Of a DNA stretch of 21,365 bases, positions 4,040 through 19,391 are shown one piece after another. Made by a program: the position numbers and the translations under genes. Every line of letters begins with the position of its first letter. The first letter of the stretch is position 1. The notes below the pieces were generated by a model, which saw only the letters and a list, made by a program, of their open reading frames with translations, ran no database searches and was not told where the DNA came from. This DNA comes from a virus (lineage: Duplodnaviria > Heunggongvirae > Uroviricota > Caudoviricetes): IMG/VR virus record IMGVR_UViG_2574180227_000016; one strand, written 5' to 3'.

Positions 4040-4723
4040 TCAGTAGCGATGCAGTGAAGGCGGCAACTCTTTGTTCTTAAGCCTTTCCCATGCCAGAAGG
4101 TTCGTCGGCCCGTCAGGCTCATAAATATCTATATCCCGCGTGTGATTAATTAAAACGCCCCTCGCCCTCCCGATGGTATACGAGAACTCATAGCCGTAGT
4201 CGTGGCATATGCCGGAATAGCCAGACTGAATCAGTTTTAATGCGGGATACAACTCACGGAACAATGCCTGTGAGCGGTTGGCATAATCCCACAGCCATAC
4301 AAGGCTGTCTGTTTCTTTTGCGGAAAGCCCGTTGGGCTTCTTCTCTTGTTTGCCAGTATTTTTCTCGCACTGGCTGAAATAGCAGTCTTCCAGTTTTTCG
4401 AACACTTCCCACGCCCGATCGGTTTCGAGCATTTTTGCATGACGGGCTGCGCCGCGTTCTGTCCATAGGATGAGGGAGCGAACGTTACGGGCAATTTTCA
4501 CAGAGTAGTTAAAAGCTACTCTGTGCTTGAACTCACGTAAAGTTTCACCTTCAAGTTTGAAGAAGTGTTTTTCCTCAATGAAACGACCTTTGTTTTCGTG
4601 GTGATTCTGGCGAATACGAATAGCTTCTGTGCCGTAAAGGTGCGCCAAAAGTTCGGTAGTGATAACGGGGATCTGCTTGTAAGTAATCGTGGAGAGTGTT
4701 TCAACAGAAACTTGAGTTGTCAT
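4040..4723 (-). CDS. nin-region DNA-binding/antirepressor-like protein (ORF6N/Roi-like)
   Basis: 227 aa. N-terminus [33 protein letters not shown] resembles ORF6N-type antirepressor domains. Preceded by a 277-bp structured intergenic region. Confidence 0.45.
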
Positions 4724-4884
4724 AATGACGCCCTCGAGTGGTTTCTAAACTATCACCACCGTCAGGTTCCTAATCATCGGGTGGCGAGACGTACAGGGTT
4801 AGGAACTACCGGGAAACCAACCGGCGAGCTTTTCAGCTCCCCTATACGCCCCACCATAATTCAGATGTGCGTGTGCATACGACA

Positions 4885-4909
4885 ATAAAAAACACGCTCG
4901 CGGCGTGTC
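4885..4909 (-). terminator. rho-independent terminator inside the nin region (tR2-like candidate)
   Basis: In - strand sense: ACACGC-CGCGA-GCGTGT followed by TTTTTTATTG. Confidence 0.45.
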
Positions 4910-5000
4910 TCTGTCGCGGTTTCTATCCGGGGTTCCTAATCCCGACGCCAGATTTTGCTGGCGCGTGAGGAATATAGCCCCGAATAAATCATCACGTCAA

Positions 5001-5183
5001 TCACCTTGTTTTCCTCGCACGATGTCTTAGCCACCGGATATCCCACAGGTGAGCCGTGTAATTGAAGGTTTTAACGTCAGATTCTTTTGGGATTGGCCTG
5101 GGTTTATTTCTGGAGCGTTTCGTTGGAAGGTATTTGCAGTTTTCGCAGATGATGTCGGTGATACTTCGTCGCTGTCGCCTCAT
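5001..5183 (-). CDS. ninE: NinE
   Basis: 60 aa from the internal ATG: [60 protein letters not shown], matching lambda NinE as recalled. ATGA overlap with the upstream methyltransferase stop. Confidence 0.7.
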
Positions 5184-5707
5184 GCCGCCCTCCTGACGCC
5201 CTGCCCGATCGCCATCAATGCCGCTTTGGATACGGTAGTAAACATCCGTCGAGGACTGATGAACGGTCGCCAAATCAGCAGCATGGAACCTTTGCTGTTT
5301 CCCTTCTTCTCCAGCCCTGTCGATGGTTCGATAAAATTAATCCGTCCATCAGTGATGATGCGAACTTCGTCAACACTCTCCAGAGCCTTACTGAACCATC
5401 CGACAGACATATCCTCTGGCACAAGCATCACTACCGTCTGTCGTTGTTGTATGCACTGCTCAGCGGCTTTTTCCACCCACGGCCTGATATTGCTGTACGG
5501 TGGGTTATTCCAGATTGCACCGTGGCTTACCCACTCAGAATTGAGCGCGTCGTCGGCCTCAGTTAGCCAGTGAGCACACAGAGCATTTTTGTCGCTCGCT
5601 GCCGAATCCAGCCAGAATCCAAACTCAATATCCAGTGCATCAAAAAGCCAAAGCGGCGTTTGCCAGCAGTCCTTGTCGTGTGCTGGCGTATTTGATTTGA
5701 TAGTCAT
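5180..5707 (-). CDS. phage Dam-family DNA N6-adenine methyltransferase
   Basis: 175 aa from the ATG overlapping the NinB stop. Contains the NPPY motif (IWNNPPYS) of N6-adenine methyltransferases and an upstream WQTP motif. Confidence 0.75.
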
Positions 5708-6150
5708 GCAGCCTTCCCTTTTCGTTGTGACCATTCATACTCTCGCCAGGAGTCATCACTCCACCGCACGTTGCGCTCTGAGCCGAACCAGAACATGATT
5801 TCGATAAGCTCAGTCATGCTGGCCTTCCGCATTTTGCTGGTGCGCACACCAAGCATGACAACGCCACCGCCGATACCAGGCGCACTTCGTTGCTCCAGTT
5901 TTTTGGTCTTAAGCCACAGGGCAGTGAACAGGTCTTTCCAGTCTTCCGGCGCCAGCCGTTGACCATGCCATAGCACCTGACGCGAAACATCGTTCAGCAT
6001 CGGCCACATACGGTCATTCTGCGCTTTGCTACGCTTGGGTTCTTTAACGTGGACTTCGTGGGGTGACTTGTCGTCGATGGGTAGTGAGAGAATGGCGTCT
6101 ATGGCGTTATTTCTGATTGCTTCGTTGCGAAGCAGAAAGGTTTGCTTCAT
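5704..6150 (-). CDS. ninB: NinB (Orf-family recombination mediator)
   Basis: 148 aa from the ATG at 6150 with GGAGAG upstream. LNDVSRQVLWHGQRL and WSDDSWREYEW blocks parallel lambda NinB. Confidence 0.8.
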   Translation of the reverse strand: MKQTFLLRNEAIRNNAIDAILSLPIDDKSPHEVHVKEPKRSKAQNDRMWPMLNDVSRQVLWHGQRLAPEDWKDLFTALWLKTKKLEQRSAPGIGGGVVMLGVRTSKMRKASMTELIEIMFWFGSERNVRWSDDSWREYEWSQRKGKAA

Positions 6151-6343
6151 CTCCTGCTCTCCGGTTCCATTTTTCAGCCGCCGCAGCAACTGATGGTGCC
6201 CACGCCCCCCTGGCTTCACAGAGGTCACATTCTGCATAGCCCCACACATCAATATTTATTCCGGCCTCAACCCACAGACGAGCATTACCGCCGCAAAACG
6301 GACATTCTTTTAGCTTTGGCTGGGTTAATGATAGGTCGCTCAT
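6107..6343 (-). CDS. Lar-family restriction-alleviation-like zinc-ribbon protein
   Basis: MSDLSLTQPKLKECPFCGG...ECDLCEARG...KWNRRA has the CPFCG/CxxC and AWNRR-type signature of Lar-family proteins. GAAGGAG RBS 5 nt upstream. The 3' end overlaps the ninB start in another frame. Confidence 0.55.
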   Translation of the reverse strand: MSDLSLTQPKLKECPFCGGNARLWVEAGINIDVWGYAECDLCEARGAWAPSVAAAAEKWNRRAGDEANLSASQRSNQK

Positions 6344-6353
6344 GCTCACTCCT

Positions 6354-6569
6354 TCACTTTAAATCCAGACTCCGGATAATTCTGTTGCGCTGAAACTCAT
6401 TGTTGAGTTTGAACAACCGTCGAAGAACACGGTCACGCGGATAGCATCGTGCGGCAGGTGAATGCTCATACAACTCATCAAGCGGCAAACTGGACGATGA
6501 ACGATACCGATACCAACGCACCAACTCTTCACGAAAATTAGCCCTGACAAGCTCAGCTATCGTACTCAT
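6354..6569 (-). CDS. hypothetical protein (nin region)
   Basis: 71-aa ORF. Its ATG overlaps the stop of the upstream small ORF and its stop lies in the Lar RBS. No family recognised. Confidence 0.4.
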   Translation of the reverse strand: MSTIAELVRANFREELVRWYRYRSSSSLPLDELYEHSPAARCYPRDRVLRRLFKLNNEFQRNRIIRSLDLK

Positions 6570-6658
6570 TTCTTAAAGCCTCCAATTACTCTTCCCCAAA
6601 TAAAAAGGCCTGCGATTACCAGCAGGCCTGTTACAAGCTCAGTGATGTAGATGGTCAT
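6566..6658 (-). CDS. small hydrophobic peptide (30 aa)
   Basis: MTIYITELVTGLLVIAGLFIWGRVIGGFKK. ATGA overlap with the ren stop and TGA/ATG overlap with the next ORF. Under the ORF-track cut-off. Confidence 0.25.
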   Translation of the reverse strand: MTIYITELVTGLLVIAGLFIWGRVIGGFKK

Positions 6659-6945
6659 CTTTTAACTCCATATACCGCCAATACCCGTTTCATCACTGCA
6701 CTCTGGCGACACTCCTTAAAAATCAGGTTCGTGCTCACCTTTCCTTCCCGTTCTTCCCTGGTAGCAAACCGGTAATACACCGTTCGCCAGACCTTACCAT
6801 CAATGACAAGGATTCCTGCCCGCGCCATTTTAGCCGCAGCCTGATTTATACTGGTTACGGTTGCGCCTGTTACCGCGGAAACGTCCTGTGCACAGAAGTT
6901 CTTATGCGCCCCGAGGTAATGAATAATTGCCTCTTTGCCCGTCAT
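6655..6945 (-). CDS. ren: Ren
   Basis: 96 aa, MTGKEAIIHYLGAHKNFCAQDVSAVTGATVTSINQAAAKMARAGILVIDGKVWRTVYYRFATREEREGK, near-identical to lambda Ren as recalled. Confidence 0.85.
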   Translation of the reverse strand: MTGKEAIIHYLGAHKNFCAQDVSAVTGATVTSINQAAAKMARAGILVIDGKVWRTVYYRFATREEREGKVSTNLIFKECRQSAVMKRVLAVYGVKR

Positions 6946-7643
6946 ACACTTGCTCCTTTCAGTCCGAACTTAGCTTTAATTTCTGCGATCTTCGCCAGAG
7001 CCTGTGCTCGATTTAGAGGTCTGCCGCCCATGACAGGAAGTTGTTTTACTGGTTCAGGTATCGTCTCACCACGGTTAATTCGTGCTGTCATACAGGTCAG
7101 TTCATCGGCAGCCTTGCGCCGTAATTCCGCGTCAGTCAGCGCATTGGCCCGCATGTTCTGGTACAGGTTGGTAACCAGCCAGTAGTGCGCGTTTGATTTC
7201 CACGGATAAGACTCTGCATCCGGATACAGGCCACGCTTCCGGCAATACTCGTAAACCATATCAACCAGCTCGCTGACGTTTGGCAGTCCGGCGATAACGG
7301 ATGCTTCTTCCCGGCACCATGCAACAAACTGCCCGGGTGATGGAAGAAATGGTCGATTCTGCCGACGGGCTACGCGCATTCCTGCGTTAACCTGTTCCAT
7401 CGAGGTGATCCCGTTTTCCCGGAAAGCCAGAACCCACTGGCGGCGGATTTCATTCAGTTCGTTCTGGCCCCGGTTAGCCAGACTCGCCGGGAAAGTTGCC
7501 AGTAACTGGCTGAACACACCGTTGATGATCTGCGCTACCTGTTGTACCTGCGGCTTTTCGTCGTACTGTTCCGGCATGTTGTTGGCGATCCGACGCATCT
7601 GCTCACGGTCAAAGTTAACCATCTGTGCGGCGATGTTTTTCAT
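6942..7643 (-). CDS. P: replication protein P (DnaB helicase loader)
   Basis: 233 aa, [44 protein letters not shown]..., essentially lambda P. Overlaps the O stop by 4 nt. Confidence 0.9.
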   Translation of the reverse strand: MKNIAAQMVNFDREQMRRIANNMPEQYDEKPQVQQVAQIINGVFSQLLATFPASLANRGQNELNEIRRQWVLAFRENGITSMEQVNAGMRVARRQNRPFLPSPGQFVAWCREEASVIAGLPNVSELVDMVYEYCRKRGLYPDAESYPWKSNAHYWLVTNLYQNMRANALTDAELRRKAADELTCMTARINRGETIPEPVKQLPVMGGRPLNRAQALAKIAEIKAKFGLKGASV

Positions 7644-8545
7644 AAATCCACCCCGTAAATCCAGTCAGTGTTTGTCAGGTCGAGTTTTGGTTTGCTGGCT
7701 GTCACGCCTGCCTGTTGCTTGTTACGGTTGATTTCGAGCTGGGTCCACTTGTCGCGGAGTTTGGCCGGACTCAGCACGTTACCGGACCAGAAGTTGTCCT
7801 GGCAGGCCCAGCGGAAAAGCACACACATATCGCGGTGGTTACGTCCGTCACGTTCACGCATCAGGCGGATATCGTTAGCCCACCCTGCAAAATTCGGTTT
7901 TCTGGCTGATGGTGCGATGGTCTTCACCATGTCAAACATCCACTCTGCGGCGGTCAGGTCTTCTGCTGTTCCCCACTTGCTGCCGCTCTGAATTGCAGCA
8001 TCCGGTTTAACCACAGAAAGATCGTTTTCTGGCTGGTCAGAGGATTCGCCAGAATTCTCGGACGAATAATCTTTTCTTTTTTCTTTTGTAATAGTTTCTT
8101 TTGTGTGTCCCTGTTTTGGTGACAGCGCTGTCACCGTTTTGGTGACACTTTTTGTCACCAATGCAGTGACATTATCACCAGAGTAGTGACACCCTTCGAT
8201 TTGCCATTCCTCGATGTTCTTGTTAGGCCCGATTTGCTGGCCTTCGCGAAGGATAACCTTCATCGCGATAAGCTCATTCTTGGCCTTGTTTACCTTCTGT
8301 CTTGGCAGCCTGGTAATTTGAGCTAACTGACTATCAGAGATGCGATCCATCTTTTTACCGTAGCCGTATGTTTTACGGCATATGGCGTGGGCAACCTTGC
8401 TCTGATTTTTCGTTAAATCTGCGCCGATAAGCTCTTCATACAGGGCATTTGCAAGACGGGTATAACCATCTTCAACTTCTGCCACACGACGCTCCACAGG
8501 CCGTTGTGAAGGCCTTAAATGTGTTACGGTTGCAAGATTACTCAT
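7640..8545 (-). CDS. O: replication initiator O
   Basis: 301 aa. N-terminus ([56 protein letters not shown]) parallels lambda O. The central linker is encoded by the iteron region. Confidence 0.9.
8064..8195. other. candidate replication origin inside O: AT-rich tract plus four GTGACA/TGTCACC-type inverted-repeat iterons
   Basis: AT-rich 8064-8105. Iterons GGTGACAGCGCTGTCACC (8118-8135), GGTGACACTTTTTGTCACC (8141-8159), GTGACATTATCAC (about 8166-8178) and GTGACAC (about 8185-8191). The location matches ori-lambda sitting in the O linker. Confidence 0.5.
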
Positions 8546-8716
8546 GACCTTTCTCCTTCTGCATCAGCTTCACTTTTTCCAACCCAGCCCGGAATCGACC
8601 AGGCTGCTTGAAGCTGGACAGGAAGCGATCACGTAGTATGTGTTTGTGAATTTTGTCCTGGTAAGGACTGAGTTGTTTTGTCATAATGACTCCTGTAGAT
8701 TGATCCAGTAATTCCC

Positions 8717-9013
8717 TCAGAATTCCATCTGGATTTGTTCAGAACGCTCGGTTGCCGCCGGGCGTTTTTTATTGGTGATTCCATCAAGCGCATACTTAAA
8801 AGCCCTGCTAATCGGACTGATGTCTGATGCCATTCCGAAAGCACACAGGACCGAAGCAATAAATCTCCAGTCCGTTCTGCTTATCTTCGATTCATGACAG
8901 CCAATCATCTTTGCCAGTCCCCTTTGCGTCAGAGCTGACAGGTTGATAAGTAAATCCGTTTCAGCGCGATCAACGTCACGCTGTGATAGTTTGCTGTAAC
9001 TTGTTTGTGTCAT
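8717..9013 (-). CDS. cII: CII-like transcriptional activator
   Basis: 98 aa. The C-terminal tail [20 protein letters not shown] matches the lambda CII C-terminus; the N-terminal part is divergent. Lies between cro and O. Confidence 0.75.
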
Positions 9014-9098
9014 TTCTTAATATTTCCAATAGTGAATAGTTAGTTGAAAGGTATGCGTGGAAACGCATATGGCCTTAGTTGGTCAGATATATTGGGAC

Positions 9099-9144
9099 TC
9101 GCTTTGTCAGCGACGTAGGACGAATGTCCATTGTGAAAAGAGTG
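9099..9144 (-). promoter_or_regulatory. nutR candidate: boxA-like CACTCTTTTCACAA and boxB hairpin TCGCTGACAAAGCGA
   Basis: In - strand sense, between cro and cII. The boxB loop TGACAAA is identical to the boxB hairpin upstream of N. Confidence 0.5.
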
Positions 9145-9154
9145 GATCCGCTTA

Positions 9155-9370
9155 TTAAGCGGCTTGGTGTTCCGGCGGGAACACGTCATCAAGACTGACT
9201 TTTGCGCCGAACTTGTTTAGGCACGCAACAAGAGCACGGCATGTTTTAAGGTCTGGGAAGCGACGACCAGATTCCCAATGTCCGATAGCCCCCTGTGTGC
9301 ATCCAACAGCCTTAGCAAGGGTTGTTTGAGAGATCTTCAGTGACTCTCGATATTTTCGTAGGTTGCTCAT
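9155..9370 (-). CDS. cro: Cro-like HTH repressor
   Basis: 71 aa from the internal ATG with GGAGGG RBS: MSNLRKYRESLKISQTTLAKAVGCTQGAIGHWESGRRFPDL. Divergent from the repressor gene. Confidence 0.75.
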   Translation of the reverse strand: MSNLRKYRESLKISQTTLAKAVGCTQGAIGHWESGRRFPDLKTCRALVACLNKFGAKVSLDDVFPPEHQAA

Positions 9371-9396
9371 ATGCCCTCCATAGTAACCATGAAACA

Positions 9397-9425
9397 ATAA
9401 TACGATATGTACTTTTGGAATGCAA
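9397..9425 (-). promoter_or_regulatory. PR candidate promoter (TTGCAT-17 nt-TATTAT, - strand)
   Basis: Reverse complement of 9420-9425 is TTGCAT and of 9397-9402 is TATTAT, with a 17-nt spacer, about 30 nt upstream of the cro ATG. The -10 overlaps an operator repeat. Confidence 0.5.
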
Positions 9426-9473
9426 TCGAAAAAATACATCTTGTGCATGGATGGTTTTAGTACGGAGCGTAAT
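9399..9473. promoter_or_regulatory. OR operator cluster: three 15-bp sites of form AGTAC-N5-GTACT
   Basis: AATACGATATGTACT (9399-9413), AATACATCTTGTGCA (9433-9447, weaker), AGTACGGAGCGTAAT (9459-9473). The same motif recurs at OL (AGTACACATCGTACT). Confidence 0.45.
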
Positions 9474-9488
9474 AATGAGGGTATGAAA

Positions 9489-10142
9489 ATGAAATGGTAT
9501 GAACTGGCTAGATCCAGAATGAAAGAACTCAGCATAACTCAAGAGAAGTTAGCTGAAGAGCTTGGTATGACGCAGGGTGGAATTGGTCACTGGTTGCGCG
9601 GATCTCGTCATCCATCTCTTGACGAGATTGGTGTGGTGTTTAAGTACCTTGGTATTAATAACGTCTCATTCAACCACGACGGTACATTTTCACCTGTTGG
9701 CGAATACTCATCAGCCCCCGTTAAAAAACAATATGAGTACCCTGTTTTTTCTCATGTTCAGGCCGGGATGTTCTCGTCTGAGCTTAGAACCTTTACCAAA
9801 GGTGATGCGGAGAGATGGGTAAGCACAACCAAAAAAGCCAGTGATTCTGCATTTTGGCTTGAGGTTGAAGGTAACTCAATGACCGCACCAACAGGTTCCA
9901 AACCCAGTTTTCCTGACGGGATGTTAATTCTTGTTGACCCTGAGCAGGCTGTTGAGCCAGGTGATTTCTGCATAGCCAGACTTGGTGGTGATGAGTTTAC
10001 CTTCAAGAAACTGATCAGGGATAGTGGTCAGGTGTTTCTACAGCCACTAAACCCACAGTACCCAATGATCCCATGCAATGAGAGTTGTTCCGTTGTTGGG
10101 AAAGTTATCGCCAGCCAGTGGCCTGAAGAGACGTTTGGGTGA
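9489..10142 (+). CDS. cI: CI-type prophage repressor (HTH plus LexA/S24 autopeptidase domain)
   Basis: N-terminal HTH ([25 protein letters not shown]) and C-terminal S24 signature ([10 protein letters not shown], catalytic Ser; TFKKL, Lys). GAGG sits 8 nt upstream of the ATG at 9489. An ATG at 9483 could give a leaderless start. Confidence 0.85.
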
Positions 10143-10151
10143 GGAGGATAG

Positions 10152-10493
10152 ATGGCGTTCACTGACCTTGAATATCAAGCGGTCAAAAAAGAAGTTCACC
10201 AATTCATTGAAAGCATAAGGCCGCCTGAACATATCCGCAATGAACTGGATATTGTTTATAGCATCAATGACCAAACGATAGATATCGGCGAACAGCGCCC
10301 CGTGTGGCAGGGCAACCCAGGTGAAACAAACATCCTGCCATCAGCAAGAATCAAGTACATACGTTCTCTGGATAGATGGAAAATCTATTGGATGCGGAAG
10401 GATATGAAATGGCATCAGTACAGTACTGAACTTTCGCTGACTGATGCGCTTGAGCTTGTGCGTGCTGACCCGGATTGCTGCTTCTTCGGATGA
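10152..10493 (+). CDS. hypothetical protein co-transcribed with cI (cargo gene A, 113 aa)
   Basis: GAGGAGGA RBS directly after the cI stop. Tryptophan-rich C-terminal half (WKIYWMRKDMKWHQY). Flanked by a 15-nt direct repeat. Confidence 0.6.
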   Translation: MAFTDLEYQAVKKEVHQFIESIRPPEHIRNELDIVYSINDQTIDIGEQRPVWQGNPGETNILPSARIKYIRSLDRWKIYWMRKDMKWHQYSTELSLTDALELVRADPDCCFFG

Positions 10494-10563
10494 GTGAAGA
10501 GACGTTTGGATGATGGATGGTCGCAGAGATGCTCGTAGAGCATACAGCGATGCAGGAGAATTT

Positions 10564-10998
10564 ATGGCACTTAATTTAGAAAGAATATCTTTTATAACCC
10601 CATTTGATAGCAGCGAAGAACCCAACCAACCGACGCTTAATTTTACATGCAATGAATTTCCTGCGCGGCTATCAATTGATTTCAGGGTTGGTATGATCGG
10701 GTTGAAACCAAATTCAAGATATAATTTGGGTATTATGGTAATCCCCGCGCACCTAATTATAAAAAAAGGTGAGGAAATTCAATTCCCTGACGGCTCTTCG
10801 GAATCAGTTTCACTTTTCATCGATACGAAAGATAGCCATTTTGAAACAGGGGTTGGCGGACAGGTAATAGTAACATTGAAAGAAATTAGGGTCCCAGCTA
10901 AAGGGCTGTATAGTGTTATAGGGATATTGCAAGATAATGAAGACCCTAAAAATGAACTTCATAAAAATGAATCATTTTTCACCGTAGAGCTATTATGA
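10564..10998 (+). CDS. hypothetical protein (cargo gene B, 144 aa), AT-rich
   Basis: AGGAGA RBS 5 nt before the ATG at 10564. No TM segment and no recognised family. Confidence 0.55.
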   Translation: MALNLERISFITPFDSSEEPNQPTLNFTCNEFPARLSIDFRVGMIGLKPNSRYNLGIMVIPAHLIIKKGEEIQFPDGSSESVSLFIDTKDSHFETGVGGQVIVTLKEIRVPAKGLYSVIGILQDNEDPKNELHKNESFFTVELL

Positions 10999-11615
10999 GT
11001 GACGACAGTAATTTAAATAATCATGGAAAGCAAGACACCAACATATCTGAAAGCCGGAGGTTGAAGGTTGTTGGCGGTTCTGATTTTGAGGCTGAATTTG
11101 ATAATTCTCCCACCAAGGTGCAAAATAATTACATAAAACCGCCACAAACGGAGGAAGAAGTGGGAACGATCAGCAGAGAGGAACTTGATGCTCGCTTAGC
11201 TGCTAATAAAGCAGAGATGGAGTCTATTGCTTCCTCCATTAGGGCTGACATGGCTCTATCTCGTGAAAGCGTTAATGTCCAATTTGCATCACTTAATGCA
11301 GCCATAAGCTCTCTATCGTCCAAGATCGATGGAAAGATGGATAGCGCTGCTGGCGATATAAAAGCAATTAATGGGAGATTCGAAGGAATTCAAGGACAAA
11401 TAACAGGGGTTAATACCGCAATTAGTGGTGTTCAGTCGGGTATTTCTATACGATTAGCCATTTTTAGTGTCATTATCGCTGTAATAGTTGCGATTCCCGG
11501 GCTGGTATCAGCTTTAAAGTCAGACCACGCACCTTTGCAACAGCCTTCCACTTTGCAAGCGCCGCCACAAAATACCCAGCCAACAGACAACAAAAAAATC
11601 ACTCCCCAGCATTAA
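10995..11615 (+). CDS. hypothetical membrane-anchored protein (cargo gene C, 206 aa)
   Basis: ATGA overlap with gene B. Polar N-terminus, repetitive Ser/Ala/Ile-rich central segment, one predicted TM helix (IRLAIFSVIIAVIVAIPGLVSAL) and a Pro/Gln-rich tail. Followed by a strong terminator. Confidence 0.6.
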   Translation: MSDDSNLNNHGKQDTNISESRRLKVVGGSDFEAEFDNSPTKVQNNYIKPPQTEEEVGTISREELDARLAANKAEMESIASSIRADMALSRESVNVQFASLNAAISSLSSKIDGKMDSAAGDIKAINGRFEGIQGQITGVNTAISGVQSGISIRLAIFSVIIAVIVAIPGLVSALKSDHAPLQQPSTLQAPPQNTQPTDNKKITPQH

Positions 11616-11621
11616 CGCATT

Positions 11622-11649
11622 AACCCGGCCTCAGCGCCGGGTTTTCTTT
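11622..11649 (+). terminator. rho-independent terminator ending the cI operon (tIMM-like)
   Basis: AACCCGGC-CTCAGC-GCCGGGTT followed by TTTTCTTT. Confidence 0.6.
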
Positions 11650-11821
11650 GCCTCGCGATCCCCCACCTAAAAAAACATAACTCATTGTATTTATTGAAAA
11701 ATAAATAGATACAACTCACTAAACATCGCAATTCAGATCTCTCGATCACCTCCCAAGCCACTCAACCCTGCAAAATATAACCCCATAAAATACAAAACGT
11801 TATAAAAAACTAATCATATTT

Positions 11822-11864
11822 AGAACATTTTGTATTGACCCAATAAAGTACACATCGTACTATT
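11822..11864 (+). promoter_or_regulatory. PL candidate promoter (TTGACC-17 nt-TACTAT) with two overlapping OL operator sites
   Basis: -35 TTGACC 11836-11841, -10 TACTAT 11859-11864. OL sites AGTACACATCGTACT (11848-11862, perfect inverted repeat) and AGAACATTTTGTATT (11822-11836). Confidence 0.55.
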
Positions 11865-11931
11865 TAGCCATCAGCAGGATGCACCACTCACCAGGGCGGT
11901 GAATATACAACGATTCGAATATGAATCTACG

Positions 11932-11946
11932 GCGCTGACAAAGCGC
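11932..11946 (+). promoter_or_regulatory. nutL boxB hairpin GCGCTGACAAAGCGC
   Basis: Perfect 4-bp GC stem with loop TGACAAA, in the leader about 165 nt upstream of N. This sequence matches the P22-type boxB as recalled. Confidence 0.5.
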
Positions 11947-12111
11947 AATAACCAAAGTGAACTTTGGGGTGTGGTGAAGGGTTCATGGACGGGAATATGT
12001 CGCACGTAAAGCGGCGAGGCCTGCGGGACTATTGCCGAATTGAAGTAGGCCGAAACAGGTCGAAATGGGTCTCCCACCTACCACACCACCAAAGTTCATC
12101 AGGAGGTCTAT

Positions 12112-12495
12112 ATGACACGCAGAACTCAGTTCAAAGGCAATTCACGTTCTCGTCGTCGTGAGCGTTTAAAGGCAAAGGCATTAGCTAACTGCGTACTGGC
12201 CCGCGAAGAAGCAATAAGTTCAGAAGTATTACACCGCCCTACTCTAAGCAGAGCGCAGATTCAGGCTAAAGGTACTCACGAAACGCCTGAGCGCATAGAA
12301 GACGCTAAGCCAATTAAGTTCATGGCACAGGACGTGATCTGGCAACAGAAAGAATACAGACGCAATCTGGAGCGAGCAGCCATTGTGTACGCGAATGAGT
12401 TTGGACATAAGCAACCAGAAACTGGTGTATGTCTTCCAAACGTAGCCATTTACGCGGCAGGCTACCGGAAATCAAAACAACTGACGGCGAGGTGA
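12112..12495 (+). CDS. N: N-type antitermination protein with N-terminal arginine-rich motif
   Basis: AGGAGG RBS. N-terminus MTRRTQFKGNSRSRRRERLKAKA is an arginine-rich motif. First gene downstream of PL/nutL. Confidence 0.7.
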   Translation: MTRRTQFKGNSRSRRRERLKAKALANCVLAREEAISSEVLHRPTLSRAQIQAKGTHETPERIEDAKPIKFMAQDVIWQQKEYRRNLERAAIVYANEFGHKQPETGVCLPNVAIYAAGYRKSKQLTAR

Positions 12496-12556
12496 CTTGT
12501 GTTGGTCGCCAGAAAATGAGATTAGGCAGCAAACCACTTATTTGAGAGGAATTAAT

Positions 12557-13180
12557 ATGTCATCAATCCGCTTAACTACGAGAATGAAAGAGGAAATCGC
12601 TCGTAACGCTTTAATTAAGTCTGGGGTTTTCACTGAACTTGAAGAAGTAACAAAGTTAAAGAACCAGCTTGCACTTGACGCCAGAGTTATTGCGTTTGGC
12701 GGTAAAAAGAAAACTGAGGAAGTGGATCAGTTATCATCCAAGTTGGTAGCTATAAGTGAAGAACTTGAAAAGATGGGATGTTCATTTTACTCATACGATG
12801 TTAGTTCTACTTCAATTTATCTGACTGTATCTGGCAGAAGGGTTGGATGGCATTCATATGGGAAAGACGGCAACGGCAAAGATATATTGCTCCCTACTCC
12901 GACCAAAGATAAATGCATGTTTGACGCAGAGCACGAAATAACAAAAAGGTTTGATGAAATCTGCGCATTGCAACAAAAACTTGAAGCCAAGAAAAAGGAT
13001 ATCGAATCAAATGTATGGGCTGCTTTAAACTCAGTCACAACAGTTAAGCGATTTATTGAAGTTTGGCCTGAAAGCAAAGAATTGCTACCAAAAGAAGCAG
13101 ATAAAGCAAGTACAGCACTTCCTGCTTTACGGGTAGAAGATTTGAATAAGATGATTGGACTTCCTTCCGAGGCCGCATAA
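12557..13180 (+). CDS. hypothetical protein (207 aa), AT-rich cargo between N and cIII
   Basis: Start placed at the internal ATG with GAGAGGA RBS (the track ORF begins with TTG at 12497). Lysine/glutamate-rich, no recognised family. Confidence 0.55.
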   Translation: MSSIRLTTRMKEEIARNALIKSGVFTELEEVTKLKNQLALDARVIAFGGKKKTEEVDQLSSKLVAISEELEKMGCSFYSYDVSSTSIYLTVSGRRVGWHSYGKDGNGKDILLPTPTKDKCMFDAEHEITKRFDEICALQQKLEAKKKDIESNVWAALNSVTTVKRFIEVWPESKELLPKEADKASTALPALRVEDLNKMIGLPSEAA

Positions 13181-13313
13181 TCAGCCTTTATTTTTGGCAT
13201 AAACAACAGAATAAACACTGCACTGTGTATTCATTCCAACGAGTGAATACACGGAGCAATGTCGCTCGTAACTAAACAGGAGCCGACTTGTTCTGATTAT
13301 TGGAAATCTTCTT

Positions 13314-13337
13314 TGCCCTCCAATGTGAGGGCTTTTT
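13314..13337 (+). terminator. rho-independent terminator (tL-like)
   Basis: GCCCTC-CAATGT-GAGGGC followed by TTTTTT. Confidence 0.55.
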
Positions 13338-13352
13338 TATATGCATACCAAT

Positions 13353-13377
13353 AACGCTTCACTAGAGGCGTTTTCGT
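13353..13377 (+). terminator. second weaker hairpin terminator
   Basis: ACGCTTC-ACTA-GAGGCGT (one mismatch) followed by TTTCGTT. Confidence 0.35.
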
Positions 13378-13404
13378 TATGTGTAAATAAATAAGGAGCA
13401 CACC

Positions 13405-13545
13405 ATGCAATATGCCATTGCAGGGTGGCCTGTTGCTGGCTGCCCTTCCGAATCTTTACTTGAACGAATCACCCGTAAATTACGTGACGGATGGAAACGC
13501 CTTATCGACATACTTAATCAGCCAGGAGTTCCCAAAAATGGATAA
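13405..13545 (+). CDS. cIII: CIII (FtsH/HflB inhibitor)
   Basis: Manual translation [46 protein letters not shown] (46 aa) matches lambda CIII over its length; AAGGAG RBS. Under the ORF-track cut-off. Confidence 0.8.
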   Translation: MQYAIAGWPVAGCPSESLLERITRKLRDGWKRLIDILNQPGVPKNG

Positions 13546-13681
13546 AACACTTATGGCTATCCAGACTAAATTCACTATCGCCACTTTTATTGGTGATGAA
13601 AAGATGTTTCGTGAAGCCGTCGACGCTTATAAAAAATGGATATTAATACTGAAACTGAGATCAAGCAAAAGCATTCACTAA
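13538..13681 (+). CDS. kil: Kil (host cell-division inhibitor)
   Basis: 47 aa, [47 protein letters not shown]. Overlaps the cIII stop (ATGGATAA). Confidence 0.75.
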
Positions 13682-13754
13682 CCCCTTTCCTGTTTTCCTA
13701 ATCAGCCCGGCATTTCGCGGGCGATATTTTCACAGCTATTTCAGGAGTTCAGCC

Positions 13755-14051
13755 ATGAACGCTTATTACATTCAGGATCGTCTTGAGGCTCAGAGCTGGG
13801 CGCGTCACTACCAGCAGATCGCCCGTGAAGAGAAAGAGGCAGAACTGGCAGACGACATGGAAAAAGGCCTGCCCCAGCACCTGTTTGAATCGCTATGCAT
13901 CGATCATTTGCAACGCCACGGGGCCAGCAAAAAAGCCATTATCCGTGCGTTTGATGACGATGTTGAGTTTCAGGAGCGCATGGCAGAACACATCCGGTAC
14001 ATGGTTGAAACCATTGCTCACCATCAGGTTGATATTGATTCAGAGGTATAA
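13755..14051 (+). CDS. gam: Gam (RecBCD inhibitor, short form)
   Basis: 98 aa, [60 protein letters not shown], near-identical to lambda GamS. Confidence 0.9.
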
Positions 14052-14056
14052 AACGG

Positions 14057-14842
14057 ATGAGTACAGCACTCGCAACGCTGGCAGGGAAGCTGGCTGAACG
14101 TGTCGGCATGGATTCTGTCGACCCACAGGAACTGATCACCACTCTTCGCCAGACGGCATTTAAAGGCGATGCCAGCGATGCGCAGTTCATCGCATTGTTG
14201 ATCGTCGCCAACCAGTACGGCCTTAATCCGTGGACGAAAGAAATTTACGCCTTCCCTGATAAGCAGAACGGCATCGTTCCGGTGGTGGGCGTTGATGGCT
14301 GGTCCCGCATCATCAATGAAAACCAGCAGTTTGATGGCATGGACTTTGAGCAGGACAATGAATCCTGTACATGCCGGATTTACCGCAAGGACCGTAATCA
14401 TCCGATCTGCGTTACCGAATGGATGGATGAATGCCGCCGCGAACCATTCAAAACCCGCGAAGGCAGAGAAATCACCGGACCGTGGCAGTCGCATCCCAAA
14501 CGGATGTTACGGCATAAAGCCATGATTCAGTGTGCCCGTCTGGCCTTCGGATTTGCTGGTATCTATGACAAGGATGAAGCCGAGCGCATTGTCGAAAATA
14601 CTGCATACACTGCAGAACGTCAGCCAGAACGCGACATCACTCCGGTTAACGATGAAACCATGCAGGAGATTAACACTCTGCTGATCGCCCTGGATAAAAC
14701 ATGGGATGACGACTTATTGCCGCTCTGTTCCCAGATATTTCGCCGCGACATTCGCGCATCGTCAGAACTGACACAGGCCGAAGCAGTGAAAGCTCTTGGA
14801 TTCCTGAAACAGAAAGCCACTGAGCAGAAGGTGGCAGCATGA
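14057..14842 (+). CDS. bet: Bet (Red-beta single-strand annealing protein)
   Basis: 261 aa, essentially identical to lambda Bet over the full length. Confidence 0.9.
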
Positions 14843-15519
14843 CACCGGACATTATCCTGCAGCGTACCGGGATCGACGTGAGAGCTGTCGAACAGGGGGA
14901 TGATGCATGGCACAAATTACGGCTCGGCGTCATCACCGCTTCAGAAGTTCACAACGTGATAGCAAAGCCCCGCTCAGGAAAAAAGTGGCCTGACATGAAA
15001 ATGTCCTACTTCCACACCCTGCTGGCTGAGGTTTGCACCGGTGTGGCTCCGGAAGTTAATGCTAAGGCGCTGGCCTGGGGAAAACAGTACGAGAACGACG
15101 CCAGAACCCTGTTTGAATTCACTTCCGGCGTGAATGTTACTGAATCCCCGATCATCTATCGCGACGAAAGTATGCGCACAGCCTGCTCTCCCGATGGTTT
15201 ATGCAGTGACGGCAATGGCCTTGAGCTGAAATGCCCGTTTACCTCCAGGGATTTCATGAAGTTCCGGCTCGGTGGTTTCGAGGCCATAAAGTCGGCTTAC
15301 ATGGCCCAGGTGCAGTACAGCATGTGGGTGACGCGAAAAGATGCCTGGTACTTTGCCAACTATGACCCGCGTATGAAGCGTGAAGGCCTGCATTATGTCG
15401 TGATTGAGCGGAATGAAAAGTACATGGCGAATTTTGACGAGATGGTGCCGGAGTTCATCGAAAAAATGGACGAGGCACTGGCTGAAATTGGTTTTGTATA
15501 TGGGGAGCAATGGCAATGA
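14839..15519 (+). CDS. exo: Exo (lambda exonuclease, Red-alpha)
   Basis: 226 aa, essentially identical to lambda Exo. Overlaps the bet stop. Confidence 0.9.
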
Positions 15520-15674
15520 AGCATCCTCACGATAATATCCGGGTAGGCGCGATCACTTTCGTCTACTCCGTTACAAAGCGAGGCTGGGTATTTCCCGGCC
15601 TTTCTGTTATCCGAAATCCGCTGAAAGCACAGCGGCTGGCTGAGGAGATAAATAATAAACGGGAGAGTGTATGA
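15516..15674 (+). CDS. small protein coupled to exo (orf60a-like position)
   Basis: Manual translation [52 protein letters not shown] (52 aa). ATGA overlap with the exo stop and ATGA overlap with the next gene. Confidence 0.4.
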
Positions 15675-16423
15675 TTCATTTTCACGGTGGTCCAATAACT
15701 CCCGATACCTGTGCGTTGAAAGCCTGGAAAGGCAGACACGCATTCATCAGTTTTGCTAATCCAGCTCAGATTGATCTGGCTTCCGAAGTCACCCAATCAT
15801 TTGCTCTTGATAATGGTGCATTCACATTCTGGACAAAAAACAAGGCCATAGACTGGAATGAATATTACAGATTTGTTGAACGCTGGGGTAATCACCCTCG
15901 TTTCTCATTCGCAGTTATCCCGGATGTTATCGGCGGAACCAGTGAAGAGAATGACGCCCTGATTGCGGCATGGCCTCACGGTAAATTTATTGGTGCTCCG
16001 GTGTGGCACATGAACGAACCAGATGAGCGATTTATTCGTCTGTGCCATGAGTTTCCCCGCGTCTGCATCGGCTCGATGGGGGAATACGATGCAAAACGAC
16101 CGAGAGCGTGTCGGGCTAAACTACGCGATCTTATACGTCATGTTGTAGATCAGTACGGCTACCCAATCACCAAGATTCATGGGTTACGGATGTTAAATAA
16201 AGACATTTTTACTCATGTACCGCTTTCGTCTGCAGACAGCACGAACGTCGCAAGAAATATAGGCATCGACAAATCCTGGGTAGGTTCGCCATATGCTCCC
16301 GCAAGTAAAGAAACCCGTACGCAAGTTCTTGTGGAACGCATTGAATCATTCAACAGTGCCAGTTCACTTAATTACAACGCTGAACGGGACGTCTTTACCC
16401 CTCAACTGGCATTCGAAGTGTGA
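15671..16423 (+). CDS. TGT-fold / DpdA-like protein (putative nucleic-acid guanine transglycosylase); function tentative
   Basis: 250 aa. Motifs FALDNGAFTFW, VIPDVIGG and HGLRM...SSADSTNVARN resemble the catalytic Asp blocks of queuine tRNA-ribosyltransferase. There is no C-terminal zinc motif, as in phage DpdA-type proteins. Confidence 0.5.
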   Translation: MIHFHGGPITPDTCALKAWKGRHAFISFANPAQIDLASEVTQSFALDNGAFTFWTKNKAIDWNEYYRFVERWGNHPRFSFAVIPDVIGGTSEENDALIAAWPHGKFIGAPVWHMNEPDERFIRLCHEFPRVCIGSMGEYDAKRPRACRAKLRDLIRHVVDQYGYPITKIHGLRMLNKDIFTHVPLSSADSTNVARNIGIDKSWVGSPYAPASKETRTQVLVERIESFNSASSLNYNAERDVFTPQLAFEV

Positions 16424-16430
16424 GGCCAAT

Positions 16431-16646
16431 ATGACAATAGAACATAATAACGCCCTTCGCAGCATTGCCCGTCAGGCTAATTCTGAAATCAAAAAAGCCA
16501 GACAGCAGTTTCCGGATAAAAACGTCGATGACATTTGCCGTAGCGTACTGAAGAAGCACCGCGAAACGGTAACGCTGATGGGATTCACACCGACTCACTT
16601 AAGTCTGGCAATCGGTATGTTAAACGGCGTCTTTAAGGAACGGTGA
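16431..16646 (+). CDS. small hypothetical protein (71 aa), exo-xis region
   Basis: MTIEHNNALRSIARQANSEIKKARQQFPDKNVDDICRSVLKKHRETVTLMGF... Start at the internal ATG with GAGG upstream. Confidence 0.5.
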   Translation: MTIEHNNALRSIARQANSEIKKARQQFPDKNVDDICRSVLKKHRETVTLMGFTPTHLSLAIGMLNGVFKER

Positions 16647-16744
16647 ACATGAAAAGCAAAATCATCAGGGAGCTACAGGCTCCTTTTTTATTATTCGCAT
16701 TCACCCTCAAGCGTATTAACCAACAATTCAGGGATTAATGGAAG

Positions 16745-16966
16745 ATGGCAGACCTCATTGATTCAGCATCAGAAATTGAAGAATTACAGCGCAACACAGC
16801 AATAAAAATGCGCCGCCTGAACCACCAGGCTATATCTGCCACTCATTGTTGTGAGTGTGGCGATCCCATAGATGAGCGAAGACGCCTGGCCGTTCAGGGT
16901 TGTCGGACTTGTGCAAGTTGCCAGGAGGATCTGGAGCTTATCAGTAAACAGAGAGGTTCGAAGTGA
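16745..16966 (+). CDS. TraR/DksA-family C4 zinc-finger protein (lambda Orf73-like)
   Basis: 73 aa with two Cys pairs (CCECG and CRTCASC), the DksA/TraR zinc-finger arrangement, at the usual exo-xis location. Confidence 0.6.
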   Translation: MADLIDSASEIEELQRNTAIKMRRLNHQAISATHCCECGDPIDERRRLAVQGCRTCASCQEDLELISKQRGSK

Positions 16967-17748
16967 GCGAAATTAACTATCAGGAACTGCGTGAAAAGGC
17001 AGAGAAAGCAACTAAAGGAAGCTACATCGTAGGGCATACATCTGTTAACCAGCACGGCAATTTAACAGGAGTTTTTGTTTGTCAAAAATGGAAAGGAGAA
17101 CCCGGTGGCGTGATTGCCGAATGTCATGTTAACTGCCTGATTGAATCAGATGCTCAGGCTTATGCAAACGCTGAATTTATAGCAGATGCTAACCCAGCTA
17201 CCGTACTGGCGCTACTGGATGAACGGGAAAGAAACCAGCAATACATCAAACGCCGCGACCAGGAGAACGAGGATATTGCGCTTACGGTTGGGAAGCTGAG
17301 AGTTGAGCTTGAGGAGACAAAATCAAAACTCAACGAGCAGCGTGAGTATTACGAAGGTGTTATCTCGGATGGGAGTAAGCGTATTGCTGAACTGGAGAAA
17401 ATCGCCACTGACTATGCACTGAAATTTCAGAAAGCCCAGGACGCATTAAAGTACGCTGTTTTGCTGCGCAAATCAGGGCAGGAAGCACGGGAAATAAAAC
17501 CAGCCAAAGGCGAAGTTCTTGTCGTTGTATCTGGTTTTACTGGTTGCGGAAAAAGCGCCATCGCCGGGGAAATAGAAATCGCGATGAAGTCTATTGGTGT
17601 ACCGGTTAAGTGGACTAATGGCGATGCGGAAAAGCGCATGACAGGAGCTGACTGGCTGACAGCGATTGAGATGTACAAACCAACAGTGCGCATCGTGGAA
17701 GTTAATGTGCCACGCGCCGCAGGCATTCGCATCAAAGGAGGTGCGTAA
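16963..17748 (+). CDS. ea22: Ea22-like mosaic protein
   Basis: GTG start with GAGAGG RBS, overlapping the upstream stop. Central block LLDERERNQQYIKRRDQENEDIALTVGKLRVELE...NEQREYYEGVISDGSKRIAELE matches the conserved Ea22 core. N- and C-terminal domains differ from lambda. Confidence 0.65.
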   Translation: MSEINYQELREKAEKATKGSYIVGHTSVNQHGNLTGVFVCQKWKGEPGGVIAECHVNCLIESDAQAYANAEFIADANPATVLALLDERERNQQYIKRRDQENEDIALTVGKLRVELEETKSKLNEQREYYEGVISDGSKRIAELEKIATDYALKFQKAQDALKYAVLLRKSGQEAREIKPAKGEVLVVVSGFTGCGKSAIAGEIEIAMKSIGVPVKWTNGDAEKRMTGADWLTAIEMYKPTVRIVEVNVPRAAGIRIKGGA

Positions 17749-17924
17749 TGCGTGTCGCGTTTATCGGTTTATTACCATACCCGACTCGTTTTTGGGCTTC
17801 TGCGCTAATTGCAAAGCCGCATGTACTGATGGCTGACAACATCATCCCGGCACCAAAGCGCCGCCATACCGGTATTGCGGCTGCACGACGCGAAGTAAAG
17901 AAACGCAGGAGAGCAAAACGATGA
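17748..17924 (+). CDS. small basic protein (58 aa)
   Basis: AGGAGG RBS 6 nt upstream; TAATG overlap with the ea22 stop. Manual translation MRVAFIGLLPYPTRFWASALIAKPHVLMADNIIPAPKRRHTGIAAARREVKKRRRAKR. Confidence 0.35.
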   Translation: MRVAFIGLLPYPTRFWASALIAKPHVLMADNIIPAPKRRHTGIAAARREVKKRRRAKR

Positions 17925-18103
17925 AAAACCGTAAGGCAAAAATTCTGTTAGCTCGCAGAAACGGTGTTGGGGTCTGGCGCTGGTTGAGGATTAGTAACAG
18001 ACGAGTGAGGTTGACGGGGTGTTGCGGGGTGATGGGGCACAGCTGTTGCAAAAAGCCCAGCGCGTCACAGAACAGGCGGAAGAAAGGGTACGCAGTAAGA
18101 TGA
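17921..18103 (+). CDS. small basic protein, first of a tandem paralogous pair
   Basis: MKNRKAKILLARRNGVGVWRWLRISNRRVRL... ATGA overlaps on both sides. Confidence 0.35.
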   Translation: MKNRKAKILLARRNGVGVWRWLRISNRRVRLTGCCGVMGHSCCKKPSASQNRRKKGYAVR

Positions 18104-18291
18104 AAAACCGTAAAGCAAAGATGCTTATTTCCCGTGTATACAGACGTTGCTATCCCAGCCAGTGGTTGAGAGTTAGCAATCGCCGTGTGGTGTTGTACTT
18201 ATATTCTGGAATTGCCAGAGAGGGAATCAAAGATAAGCGCAGCGCGGCGCAAAACCGCTGGAAAAAACACTTGCGCACTAAAGGAGCCTGA
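18100..18291 (+). CDS. small basic protein, second of the tandem pair
   Basis: MKNRKAKMLISRVYRRCYPSQWLRVSNRRVVL... shares the start and the WLR-SNRRV-L block with the preceding ORF. Confidence 0.35.
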   Translation: MKNRKAKMLISRVYRRCYPSQWLRVSNRRVVLYLYSGIAREGIKDKRSAAQNRWKKHLRTKGA

Positions 18292-18292
18292 T

Positions 18293-18502
18293 ATGTCTAT
18301 TGCCGCAAGTTACACCATGCATCTCTATTGTGACTGCCGCCAGTGTACGGAAGGTGTATATCCAGTGCCAGACTTCGGTGAGTATATCGGTACGTCATGG
18401 TCTGGTTGTGCAAAAGAGGACCGTAAAGACGGGTGGCGAATAAGCAAAGACAAAACACGTGCTTTTGCGCCAGGGCATAAAGTTTTAAGGATTAACACAT
18501 GA
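18293..18502 (+). CDS. hypothetical Cys-rich small protein (69 aa)
   Basis: AAGGAG RBS. MSIAASYTMHLYCDCRQCTEGVYPVPDFGEY... Confidence 0.45.
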   Translation: MSIAASYTMHLYCDCRQCTEGVYPVPDFGEYIGTSWSGCAKEDRKDGWRISKDKTRAFAPGHKVLRINT

Positions 18503-18918: not shown

Positions 18919-18971
18919 TTCCGGATGGTTTATCCACGGTACGAGCTGAGGCTTATCAGGTTGTAGGAGTT

Positions 18972-19307: not shown

Positions 19308-19391
19308 GCTGGCCTGATGCAATCGTAACTCTGGGGATGGTATTCGCAGTAGCGTTTGTTGTGTACTCGATTTGTCGATGGGGATAACCAC

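Follow-up and report, generated by a model that had tools for sequence, protein, structure and literature searches.

Whether the two divergent early transcripts of a lambdoid prophage carry matching nut sites, and to which N protein such a pair answers, is the question raised by the 21,365-nt stretch of DNA analysed here (IMG/VR record IMGVR_UViG_2574180227_000016; hereafter the window). An initial annotation had placed the same boxB hairpin on both transcripts and had seen in the nutL copy and in N a likeness to phage P22, in a prophage with otherwise lambda-like genes. The pL promoter (11835..11863, + strand, TTGACC-17-TACTAT) was called by a promoter scan, and its transcript starts at about 11870 (ATCAGCAGGA) by homology to the annotated pL starts of HK106 and lambda. 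The pR promoter (9397..9425, - strand, TTGCAT-17-TATTAT) was not called by the consensus promoter scan; its hexamers were read from the sequence, and it overlaps an operator common to pL, as the inverted repeat I2 (9396-9415 / 11845-11864, 90% complementary) places a 20-nt operator/-10 block in both promoters. From pL the transcript enters the N antiterminator gene (12112..12495, + strand, 127 aa; Pfam PF25694 N_peptide, 2e-15; PHROG 271, 1.5e-38), 240 nt downstream of the promoter. On the pR side cro (9155..9373, - strand, 72 aa; Pfam HTH_3) is the first gene, upstream of nutR, and cII (8717..9013, - strand; Pfam Phage_CII, 1.4e-33) is the first gene downstream of nutR and tR1, its expression depending on antitermination. 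The nut sites occupy the canonical positions, pL-nutL-N and cro-nutR-cII, and each lies in sense orientation within its own transcript, nutL about 60 nt and nutR about 280 nt from the transcript start.

Both 15-mers lie exactly where they had been placed, the nutL boxB (GCGCU-GACAA-AGCGC, GCGCTGACAAAGCGC) at 11932-11946 on the + strand and the nutR boxB (UCGCU-GACAA-AGCGA, TCGCTGACAAAGCGA) at 9099-9113 on the - strand. Their assignment to two divergent early transcripts is upheld. An exact 13-mer is common to both copies, CGCTGACAAAGCG, which occurs twice, once per strand, against a chance expectation of 0.01 matches on average (none of 100 shuffles reached two). No further boxB-like copy within 2 mismatches exists elsewhere in the window. 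As isolated 29-mers, the nutL copy folds at -8.5 kcal/mol (z -2.7) and the nutR copy at -6.6 kcal/mol (z -2.1), both forming a stem of 5 bp around a loop of 5 nt; what had been described as a 7-nt loop, TGACAAA, is in the fold the pentaloop GACAA with a closing U-A pair. The sole difference between the copies is a compensatory change from G-C to U-A in the outermost pair, and across variants the partners in stem pairs 1-3 change together in a compensatory manner, which keeps the RNA stem paired. These pairs were tallied in register by a script, MAFFT alignment of the 14-15-nt hairpins having misplaced the tetraloop gap at the 3' end. By folds and stem pair table, then, both copies are boxB elements, that is, short RNA hairpins with a 5-bp stem and a loop of the GNRA-like 4-5 nt class; an Rfam search in E-value mode matched no nut or boxB family.

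Each boxB is preceded by a second hairpin and a boxA-like element. The nutL spacer hairpin (11912..11927, + strand, GATTC-GAATAT-GAATC), found in both the MFE and centroid folds, is joined to boxB by a TACG linker and lies inside the annotated nutL of 933W; among relatives its stem is kept and its loop is variable. Its nutR counterpart (9118..9129, - strand, GGAC-AUUC-GUCC; centroid fold) has the same TACG linker and is identical to that of H-19B nutR, and a G.U variant of it, GGGC..GTCC, is found in 7 loci, which the relaxed pattern used in the nutR locus search was able to take in. A dyad between boxA and boxB, a trait of the H-19B/933W type, is thus present at both nut sites. The boxA-like elements are less regular. 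At nutL, TGCACCACT (11880..11888, + strand) is a degenerate, poor match to the consensus CGCTCTT(T)A expected upstream of boxB, in a position homologous to the annotated HK106 nutL boxA; HK106 and H-19B have CGCACTACT there and 933W has CGCATTACT, together CGCA(C/T)TACT. At nutR, CACTCTTTT (9136..9144, - strand) differs by a G-to-A change at position 2 from CGCTCTTTT or CGCTATTTT in relatives (CGCT(C/A)TTTT in H-19B and 933W), a variant found in only 2 of 30 distinct nutR contexts. Both departures would matter if boxA, NusB and NusE were required. For H-19B N, boxA, NusB and S10 are reportedly dispensable, a finding that is said to go back to Neely and Friedman in 2000.

The N protein itself points in the same direction as the spacer hairpins. 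Its identity is 99.2% with 933W N, 96.9% with H-19B N and only 27.6% with P22 gp24, and its arginine-rich motif (ARM; residues 7-26, FKGNSRSRRRERLKAKALAN, nt 12130-12189), with the H-19B/933W-type motif 12-RSRRRER-18, is the same in all three of the window, 933W and H-19B proteins. The one substitution relative to 933W, G27C, falls just beyond the ARM and recurs in 4 of 80 related loci. HK106 and mEp234 belong to the same group, throughout which the ARM is unchanged and N identity is 97-99%. The N gene often goes uncalled in RefSeq; the intact N of E. coli SCU-104, for instance, has no annotation beyond a pseudogene fragment of 69 bp. Searching PDB by sequence with the complete N and the 20-mer P22 peptide gave no N-peptide entries, and the only hits, weak RecQ5 matches (E at least 0.03), were taken as chance.

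Agreement with H-19B and 933W extends to gene order (pL-nutL-N and cro-nutR-cII), both boxBs, both spacer hairpins and the TACG linkers. The nutL region matches 933W at 240 of 244 positions, with only boxA differing, the long N leader is identical to that of 933W, and nutR is identical to both phages from the spacer through boxB and beyond. HK106 also has both boxB copies, and P22 that of nutL. Among loci carrying the 933W-type N, this nutL boxB was found in 78 of 79, and this nutR boxB in 74 of the 75 with enough upstream sequence. Further differences are the immunity cassette between the nut sites and, for H-19B, recombination genes of the erf type in place of Red. We therefore regard the module as very probably an N/nut antitermination system of the H-19B/933W (Stx-phage) type, belonging to a lambdoid prophage of Escherichia coli; the support consists of sequence, position, fold, covariation, identity to a studied system and strict co-inheritance of ARM and loop. 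Because hairpins and N are near-identical to those already studied in H-19B and 933W, the finding is a known and ordinary one.

In that studied system, experiments showed that H-19B N binds boxB and gives read-through of terminators; with H-19B nutR/tR1 an alanine ARM mutant is dead and R3H, S11F, R15C/P and R18P are loss-of-function mutants (PMC3526286); all of the residues so affected are conserved in the window N. H-19B nutR forms two hairpins, of which the spacer and boxB, but not boxA, are protected by N together with NusA/G (PMC3526286). The in vitro assays of the Sen laboratory contained only NusA and NusG. By analogy, N of the window prophage probably binds both hairpins and mediates antitermination there. 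On loss of repressor, pL and pR would fire divergently, each transcript carrying a nut site composed of a weak boxA, a short spacer hairpin, the TACG linker and a boxB with 5-bp stem and GACAA pentaloop. N would recruit NusA to the spacer and remain attached to RNA polymerase, which could then transcribe past the Rho-dependent tR1 and the terminators beyond it, reaching cII-O-P in one direction and cIII-kil-gam-bet-exo in the opposite one.

It may be asked whether a module with intact sequences is still in use, or has fallen silent or begun to decay within a cryptic prophage, its hairpins no longer serving antitermination in the host. The rare G-to-A in the nutR boxA would fit such a history, as would the closest complete genome, E. 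coli SCU-104, in which a G-to-A in the nutL boxB breaks an otherwise invariant C-G pair and shows that such decay does occur in the lineage. In the window, by contrast, both boxBs and both spacer hairpins are intact, each of N, cI, cro, cII, O, P, gam, bet, exo and int is a full-length ORF that matches its family strongly, and a second assembly contains a near-identical copy (99.993% over 14.4 kb). Decay of this module is improbable on these grounds.

Derivation from P22, with N as a gp24 orthologue acting on P22-type nut sites and recombined into a lambda-like backbone, is less probable still. In its favour, as the initial annotation had rightly stated, the nutL boxB is identical at 15 of 15 positions to P22 boxB-left (GCGCUGACAAAGCGC), the RNA of the P22 N-peptide complex of PDB 1A4T (PMC11480772). 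P22 also has the GACAA pentaloop in common with the window, and gp24 and the window N have in common an ARM frame, F-x-G-N-x-x-x-R-R-x-E-R, in which gp24 Lys16 aligns with Arg12 and Ile28 with Leu24, as well as a C-terminal RNA polymerase-binding tail conserved over the last ~20 residues, VA(I/L)YAAG(Y/H)RKSKQ(L/I)TAR. An arginine-rich N-terminus corresponding to that of P22 had been proposed; the arginine-rich terminus is real (Pfam N_peptide), but the gp24 ARM GNAKTRRHERRRKLAIERDT is identical to that of the window at only 8 of 20 positions, and the window ARM is not of the gp24 type. At nutR, P22 has the boxA GCTCTTTA followed by CCGCC-GACAA-CGCGG, with C.C at the closing position, unlike the UCGCU-GACAA-AGCGA of the window. 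P22 nut sites carry that consensus boxA beside boxB without a spacer hairpin, whereas the window has spacer hairpins at both sites and no such boxA. The leaders are only ~54% identical to P22, and the identity values already group N and the nut regions with H-19B/933W.

In lambda, positions and layout are the same, and its 5-bp boxB stem is likewise closed by U-A, but lambda N is 23.6% identical to the window N, lambda boxB (GCCCU-GAA(A/G)A-AGGGC) is unlike that of the window, and the consensus boxA CGCTCTTA lies 8 nt from boxB without a spacer hairpin.

That the hairpins are not N sites at all, but palindromes due to chance, intrinsic terminators or sites bound by proteins at the DNA level, is a reading that the commonness of short GC-rich inverted repeats and the modest z-scores of the isolated 29-mers (-2.1 to -2.7) might invite, but it is already effectively refuted by the 13-mer on both strands with 0.01 expected, compensatory stem changes that keep RNA pairing, loop classes that follow the N ARM class in ~140 loci, and published N-dependent protection of the identical H-19B boxB (PMC3526286). 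The terminator version was discarded, a U-tract being absent after both stems.

With the H-19B/933W assignment in place, the mosaic character of the prophage can be located more precisely. The replication and recombination genes had been called lambda-like, and O/P and Gam/Bet/Exo are so, the Red genes and P being 97-100% identical to lambda. Mosaicism as such is real, but the pairing of this N with Red genes is not its sign, being the ordinary 933W arrangement; 933W too has the same N together with Red genes of the lambda kind, which leaves the immunity cassette as the one foreign part. The cI and Cro proteins are 92-94% identical to the Sakai type and about 20% identical to those of 933W and H-19B, with Cro at 94.4% to that of a Sakai-type Stx1 phage. 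The real mosaic joint is the Sakai-type cI/cro cassette, flanked by a pair of cognate nut sites. N proteins of the HK97/Sakai and S137/epsilon34 types, which are of the same family as the window N, have its C-terminus and, in part, its central region, and their loci the same nutR spacer hairpin (GGACATTCGTCC) and TACG linker, but these types have ARMs of the form (T/S)AA(S/G)RRR(A/E)RRA and a GAAA tetraloop boxB at both sites. The window immunity region derives from this group; the window nutR does not.

The co-inheritance of ARM and loop invites a broader generalization. GACAA-type ARMs accompany G(A/U)CAA at both nut sites in 72 of 72 loci and RRA-type ARMs accompany GAAA at both in 69 of 69, with no discordant case among ~140 non-redundant IMG/VR and reference loci, counts that represent non-independent events, the loci sharing descent. 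The 933W-type N, moreover, retains its nutL and nutR unchanged over more than 35 different N-nutR spacings, and hence across different immunity regions. An exceptionless recognition code across this N family, in which RR(R/H)ER(L/R)(K/R)(A/K) ARMs pair with G(A/U)CAA and RRR(E/A)RRA ARMs with the GAAA tetraloop at both nut sites despite immunity swaps, nevertheless seems rather doubtful. Were it a true code, P22 gp24 and H-19B/933W N would each be active on the other's nutL, allowing trans-antitermination between Salmonella P22-like and E. coli Stx phages, and the immunity swap in the window would be survivable only via a joint between cro and the nutR spacer.

Agreement between ARM class and loop class offers a rapid way to check mosaic lambdoid prophages for consistency. 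The importance of the present case is small beyond correct annotation, in which homology allows exact placement of nut sites. The module itself controls delayed-early expression in many E. coli prophages that form a large group, among them the Stx phages, in which N-dependent read-through feeds Q and toxin expression.

The window carries a lambdoid early region in the orientation opposite to the lambda map, with genes assigned by Pfam: P (6942-7643), O (7640-8545), cII (8717-9013) and cro (9155-9373) on the minus strand, and cI (9483-10142), N (12112-12495; PF25694, 2e-15), the kil region (13412-13681), gam (13755-14051), bet (14057-14842), exo (14839-15519) and an integrase (20079 to the window end) on the plus strand. 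The cI operon ends at a strong terminator (11622-11643), and pL (TTGACC-17-TACTAT) lies at 11835-11863 on the plus strand. Because a 20-nt block that includes the pL -10 element has a second, inverted copy at 9396-9415, pR (TTGCAT-17-TATTAT) can be placed at 9397-9425 on the minus strand. The pL transcript reaches the nutL boxB after about 63 nt, 165 nt ahead of the N start codon, and the nutR boxB is situated after the cro stop and before the cII start; both are in canonical nut positions. Matching stretches are annotated as nutL and nutR in the 933W and HK106 records, the latter also marking boxA and boxB. The assignment of the two hairpins to divergent early transcripts in the initial annotation is supported.

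Direct reading of the sequence confirms both hairpins, GCGCTGACAAAGCGC at nutL (11932-11946, + strand) and TCGCTGACAAAGCGA at nutR (9113-9099, - strand). They share the 13-mer CGCTGACAAAGCG, which occurs exactly twice in the window, once on each strand, as against a mean of 0.01 matches by chance and none of 100 dinucleotide shuffles reaching two; a whole-window search at up to two mismatches found no further boxB-like match. Each folds into a 5-bp stem with the 5-nt loop GACAA (nutL, -8.5 kcal/mol, z -2.7; nutR, -6.6 kcal/mol, z -2.1). The loop had been given as TGACAAA; a hairpin presenting GACAA stands, but the closing U-A pair had been wrongly counted as loop. The two copies differ solely by a compensatory change of the outermost pair, which is G-C at nutL and U-A at nutR. 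Variants show compensatory changes at stem positions 1-3 and an invariant C-G at position 4, with U-A, U.G or C.C at position 5.

A TACG linker joins each boxB to a spacer hairpin, predicted by folding as GATTC-GAATAT-GAATC at nutL (11912-11927, +) and GGAC-AUUC-GUCC at nutR (9129-9118, -). Among relatives the nutL spacer keeps its stem while its loop varies, and the nutR spacer stem has an A-U to G.U variant. Downstream of nutL, the N leader (11957-12097, +), which runs to the N ribosome-binding site, is predicted to form a long-range helix of about 19 bp enclosing about 100 nt, with GAACUUUGGGGUGUGGUG... paired with ...CACCACACCACCAAAGUUC; the whole leader folds with z -3.7, a stability equalled by none of 200 shuffles. 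The H-19B leader has a replaced interior, and its ends still pair with different bases (GGGGTGAAT / ATTCACCGCC). This helix resembles the RNase III-processed stem of the lambda N leader, which controls N translation.

The closest kin of this module are the Stx phages. The window N is 99.2% identical to that of the Stx2 phage 933W, G27C being the only difference, and 96.9% identical to H-19B N, as against 41.7% for a Sakai-type N, 27.6% for P22 gp24 and 23.6% for lambda N. The pL-to-N leader matches 933W at 240 of 244 nt, every difference falling in or beside boxA, and from the spacer onward the window agrees with H-19B and 933W throughout the cro-cII intergenic region, save at two downstream positions. 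H-19B N reportedly requires NusA, but not NusB, S10 or boxA (Neely and Friedman, 2000). In vivo and in vitro, H-19B N antiterminates at its nutR/tR1, no factors other than NusA and NusG being added (PMC3526286). Activity is abolished when 12-RSRRRER-18 is changed to alanine, and random loss-of-function mutants fell at R3, S11, R15 and R18 (PMC3526286), all conserved in the window N. Together with NusA/G, H-19B N protects boxB, its loop G included, as well as the spacer, and leaves boxA unprotected; the authors remarked on the two hairpins in nutR (PMC3526286). The window arginine-rich motif (ARM), nutR spacer and boxB are identical to the versions used in that study. Judged by sequence, the window module is a near-identical copy of an experimentally dissected N/nut system and is thus already known, and the earlier reading of antitermination function appears essentially correct.

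The likeness to P22 proposed for nutL also holds, as the P22 nutL boxB has the same 15-mer, which is the published P22 boxB RNA of the N-peptide complex 1A4T (PMC11480772). The two ARMs align without gaps (FKGNSRSRRRERLKAKALAN in the window against FAGNAKTRRHERRRKLAIER in P22), with 8 of 20 residues identical, P22 Lys16 facing window Arg12 and P22 Ile28 facing window Leu24. In the P22 peptide a lysine touches G6/A7 and an isoleucine touches the extruded C8 (PMC11480772); by our own numbering these are Lys16 and Ile28. The P22 nutR boxB (CCGCC-GACAA-CGCGG), however, differs from that of the window, the P22 boxA is the consensus GCTCTTTA, unlike the window, the P22 nut sites lack the spacer hairpin present at both window sites, and the leaders are only ~54% identical. 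The module therefore looks P22-like in its action at the boxB loop, yet it does not belong to the P22 gp24/nut set. A loop-closing C.C mismatch is present in both Salmonella phage Oslo nutL and P22 nutR.

The prophage had been called mosaic for pairing this N with lambda-like genes. Exo, Bet and Gam are 97.3, 99.6 and 96.9% identical to lambda and 98.7, 100 and 99.0% identical to 933W, and P and O are 97.0 and 74.1% identical to lambda. The cII protein is 85-88% identical to those of 933W, H-19B and Sakai-type phages, and cI and Cro match a Sakai-type Stx1 phage (91.8 and 94.4%) rather than 933W (17.9 and 20.0%) or H-19B (22.6 and 29.9%). Mosaicism is thus right, but the combination of N with lambda-like Red genes is no more than what 933W has, and it is the immunity cassette that is foreign. 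In Sakai-type phages N is a different one and the nut sites are of the GAAA kind, whereas the window nutR has GACAA, matching its own N; the switch from Sakai-like (TAAGCGGA) to H-19B-like (…TTTTCACAATGGAC) sequence falls within or next to boxA. The nutR boxA (9136-9144, -) is CACTCTTTT, with a G-to-A at position 2 that is rare among relatives (2 of 30 distinct nutR contexts) and is located at the very point where Sakai-like cro-proximal sequence gives way to H-19B-like nut sequence.

Other features accompany the module. Three ORFs occupy the 'rex' position, after cI and ahead of the terminator of its operon (10152-11615, +): a 113-aa DUF3024 protein with a match (7e-42) to PDC-S43, a PADLOC candidate defence family, and proteins of 162 and 206 aa of unknown function (PHROGs 5893 and 5820); these are probably prophage-expressed exclusion or defence genes. 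Directly after N, at 12497-13180 (+), lies an Nmad5 gene (nucleotide modification associated domain 5, Pfam 1.8e-70), where 933W has a different ORF. Rfam matches comprise STnc100 sRNA (1e-30; 907-1111, -), C4 antisense RNA (4777-4861, -) with its a1/b1 target (4887-4964, -), isrK (4924-4977, -), the lambda cIII thermoregulator (1e-20; 13392-13450, +) and a weak tRNA call (1943-2012, -); C4 and isrK together suggest a control region of the antirepressor or anti-Q type, like those of Gifsy and Stx prophages.

One IMG/VR contig matches window 5112-19492 at 99.993% identity, and the best complete genome match is E. coli SCU-104 (91% coverage, 97.8% identity). Of 5426 complete E. coli genomes, 309 have the pL-nutL-N segment at no less than 80% coverage. 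In SCU-104 (NZ_CP053284.1) the N ORF at 4092-4475 is intact and identical to the window N, although all that RefSeq shows there is a 69-bp 'regulator' pseudogene fragment. The nutL boxB of SCU-104 (near locus 3910) is GCGCTGACAAAACGC, where a G-to-A disrupts the C-G stem pair that is invariant elsewhere.

IMG/VR was scanned four times with N variants, giving a close set of 80 loci with N at least 98% identical to the window N. In this set the nutL boxB is GCGCTGACAAAGCGC in 78 of 79, and the nutR boxB is TCGCTGACAAAGCGA in 74 of the 75 loci with enough upstream sequence. Because the N-nutR distance takes more than 35 distinct values (1.4-3.7 kb), this one N and nut pair is found around many different immunity regions. 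At one locus with a 100% identical N (L010, IMGVR_UViG_2585427768_000008) the 7 kb upstream yielded no hairpin of the nutR type, and at another (L059) the nutL region is rearranged, the leader containing a duplicate of part of the N 5' end; in each case the cause could be a faulty assembly or a true rearrangement. Across this N family more broadly, ARMs of the H-19B, Salmonella phage Oslo (FKGTSRARRRERLKAK) and P22 types accompany G(A/U)CAA pentaloops at both nut sites (72 loci), and ARMs of the HK97/Sakai (FKGTAASRRRARRANLQ) and S137 (FNGSAAGRRRERRAALQN) types accompany GAAA tetraloops at both (69 loci). No discordance of ARM and loop class was seen among ~140 non-redundant loci (L010-L327 from IMG/VR, and L006-L009), which are related by descent, so that the counts are not independent events. 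This clean correspondence is a by-product that is only mildly new; the agreement at nutR across a freely exchanged immunity cassette offers good comparative evidence for functional coupling of N and nut.
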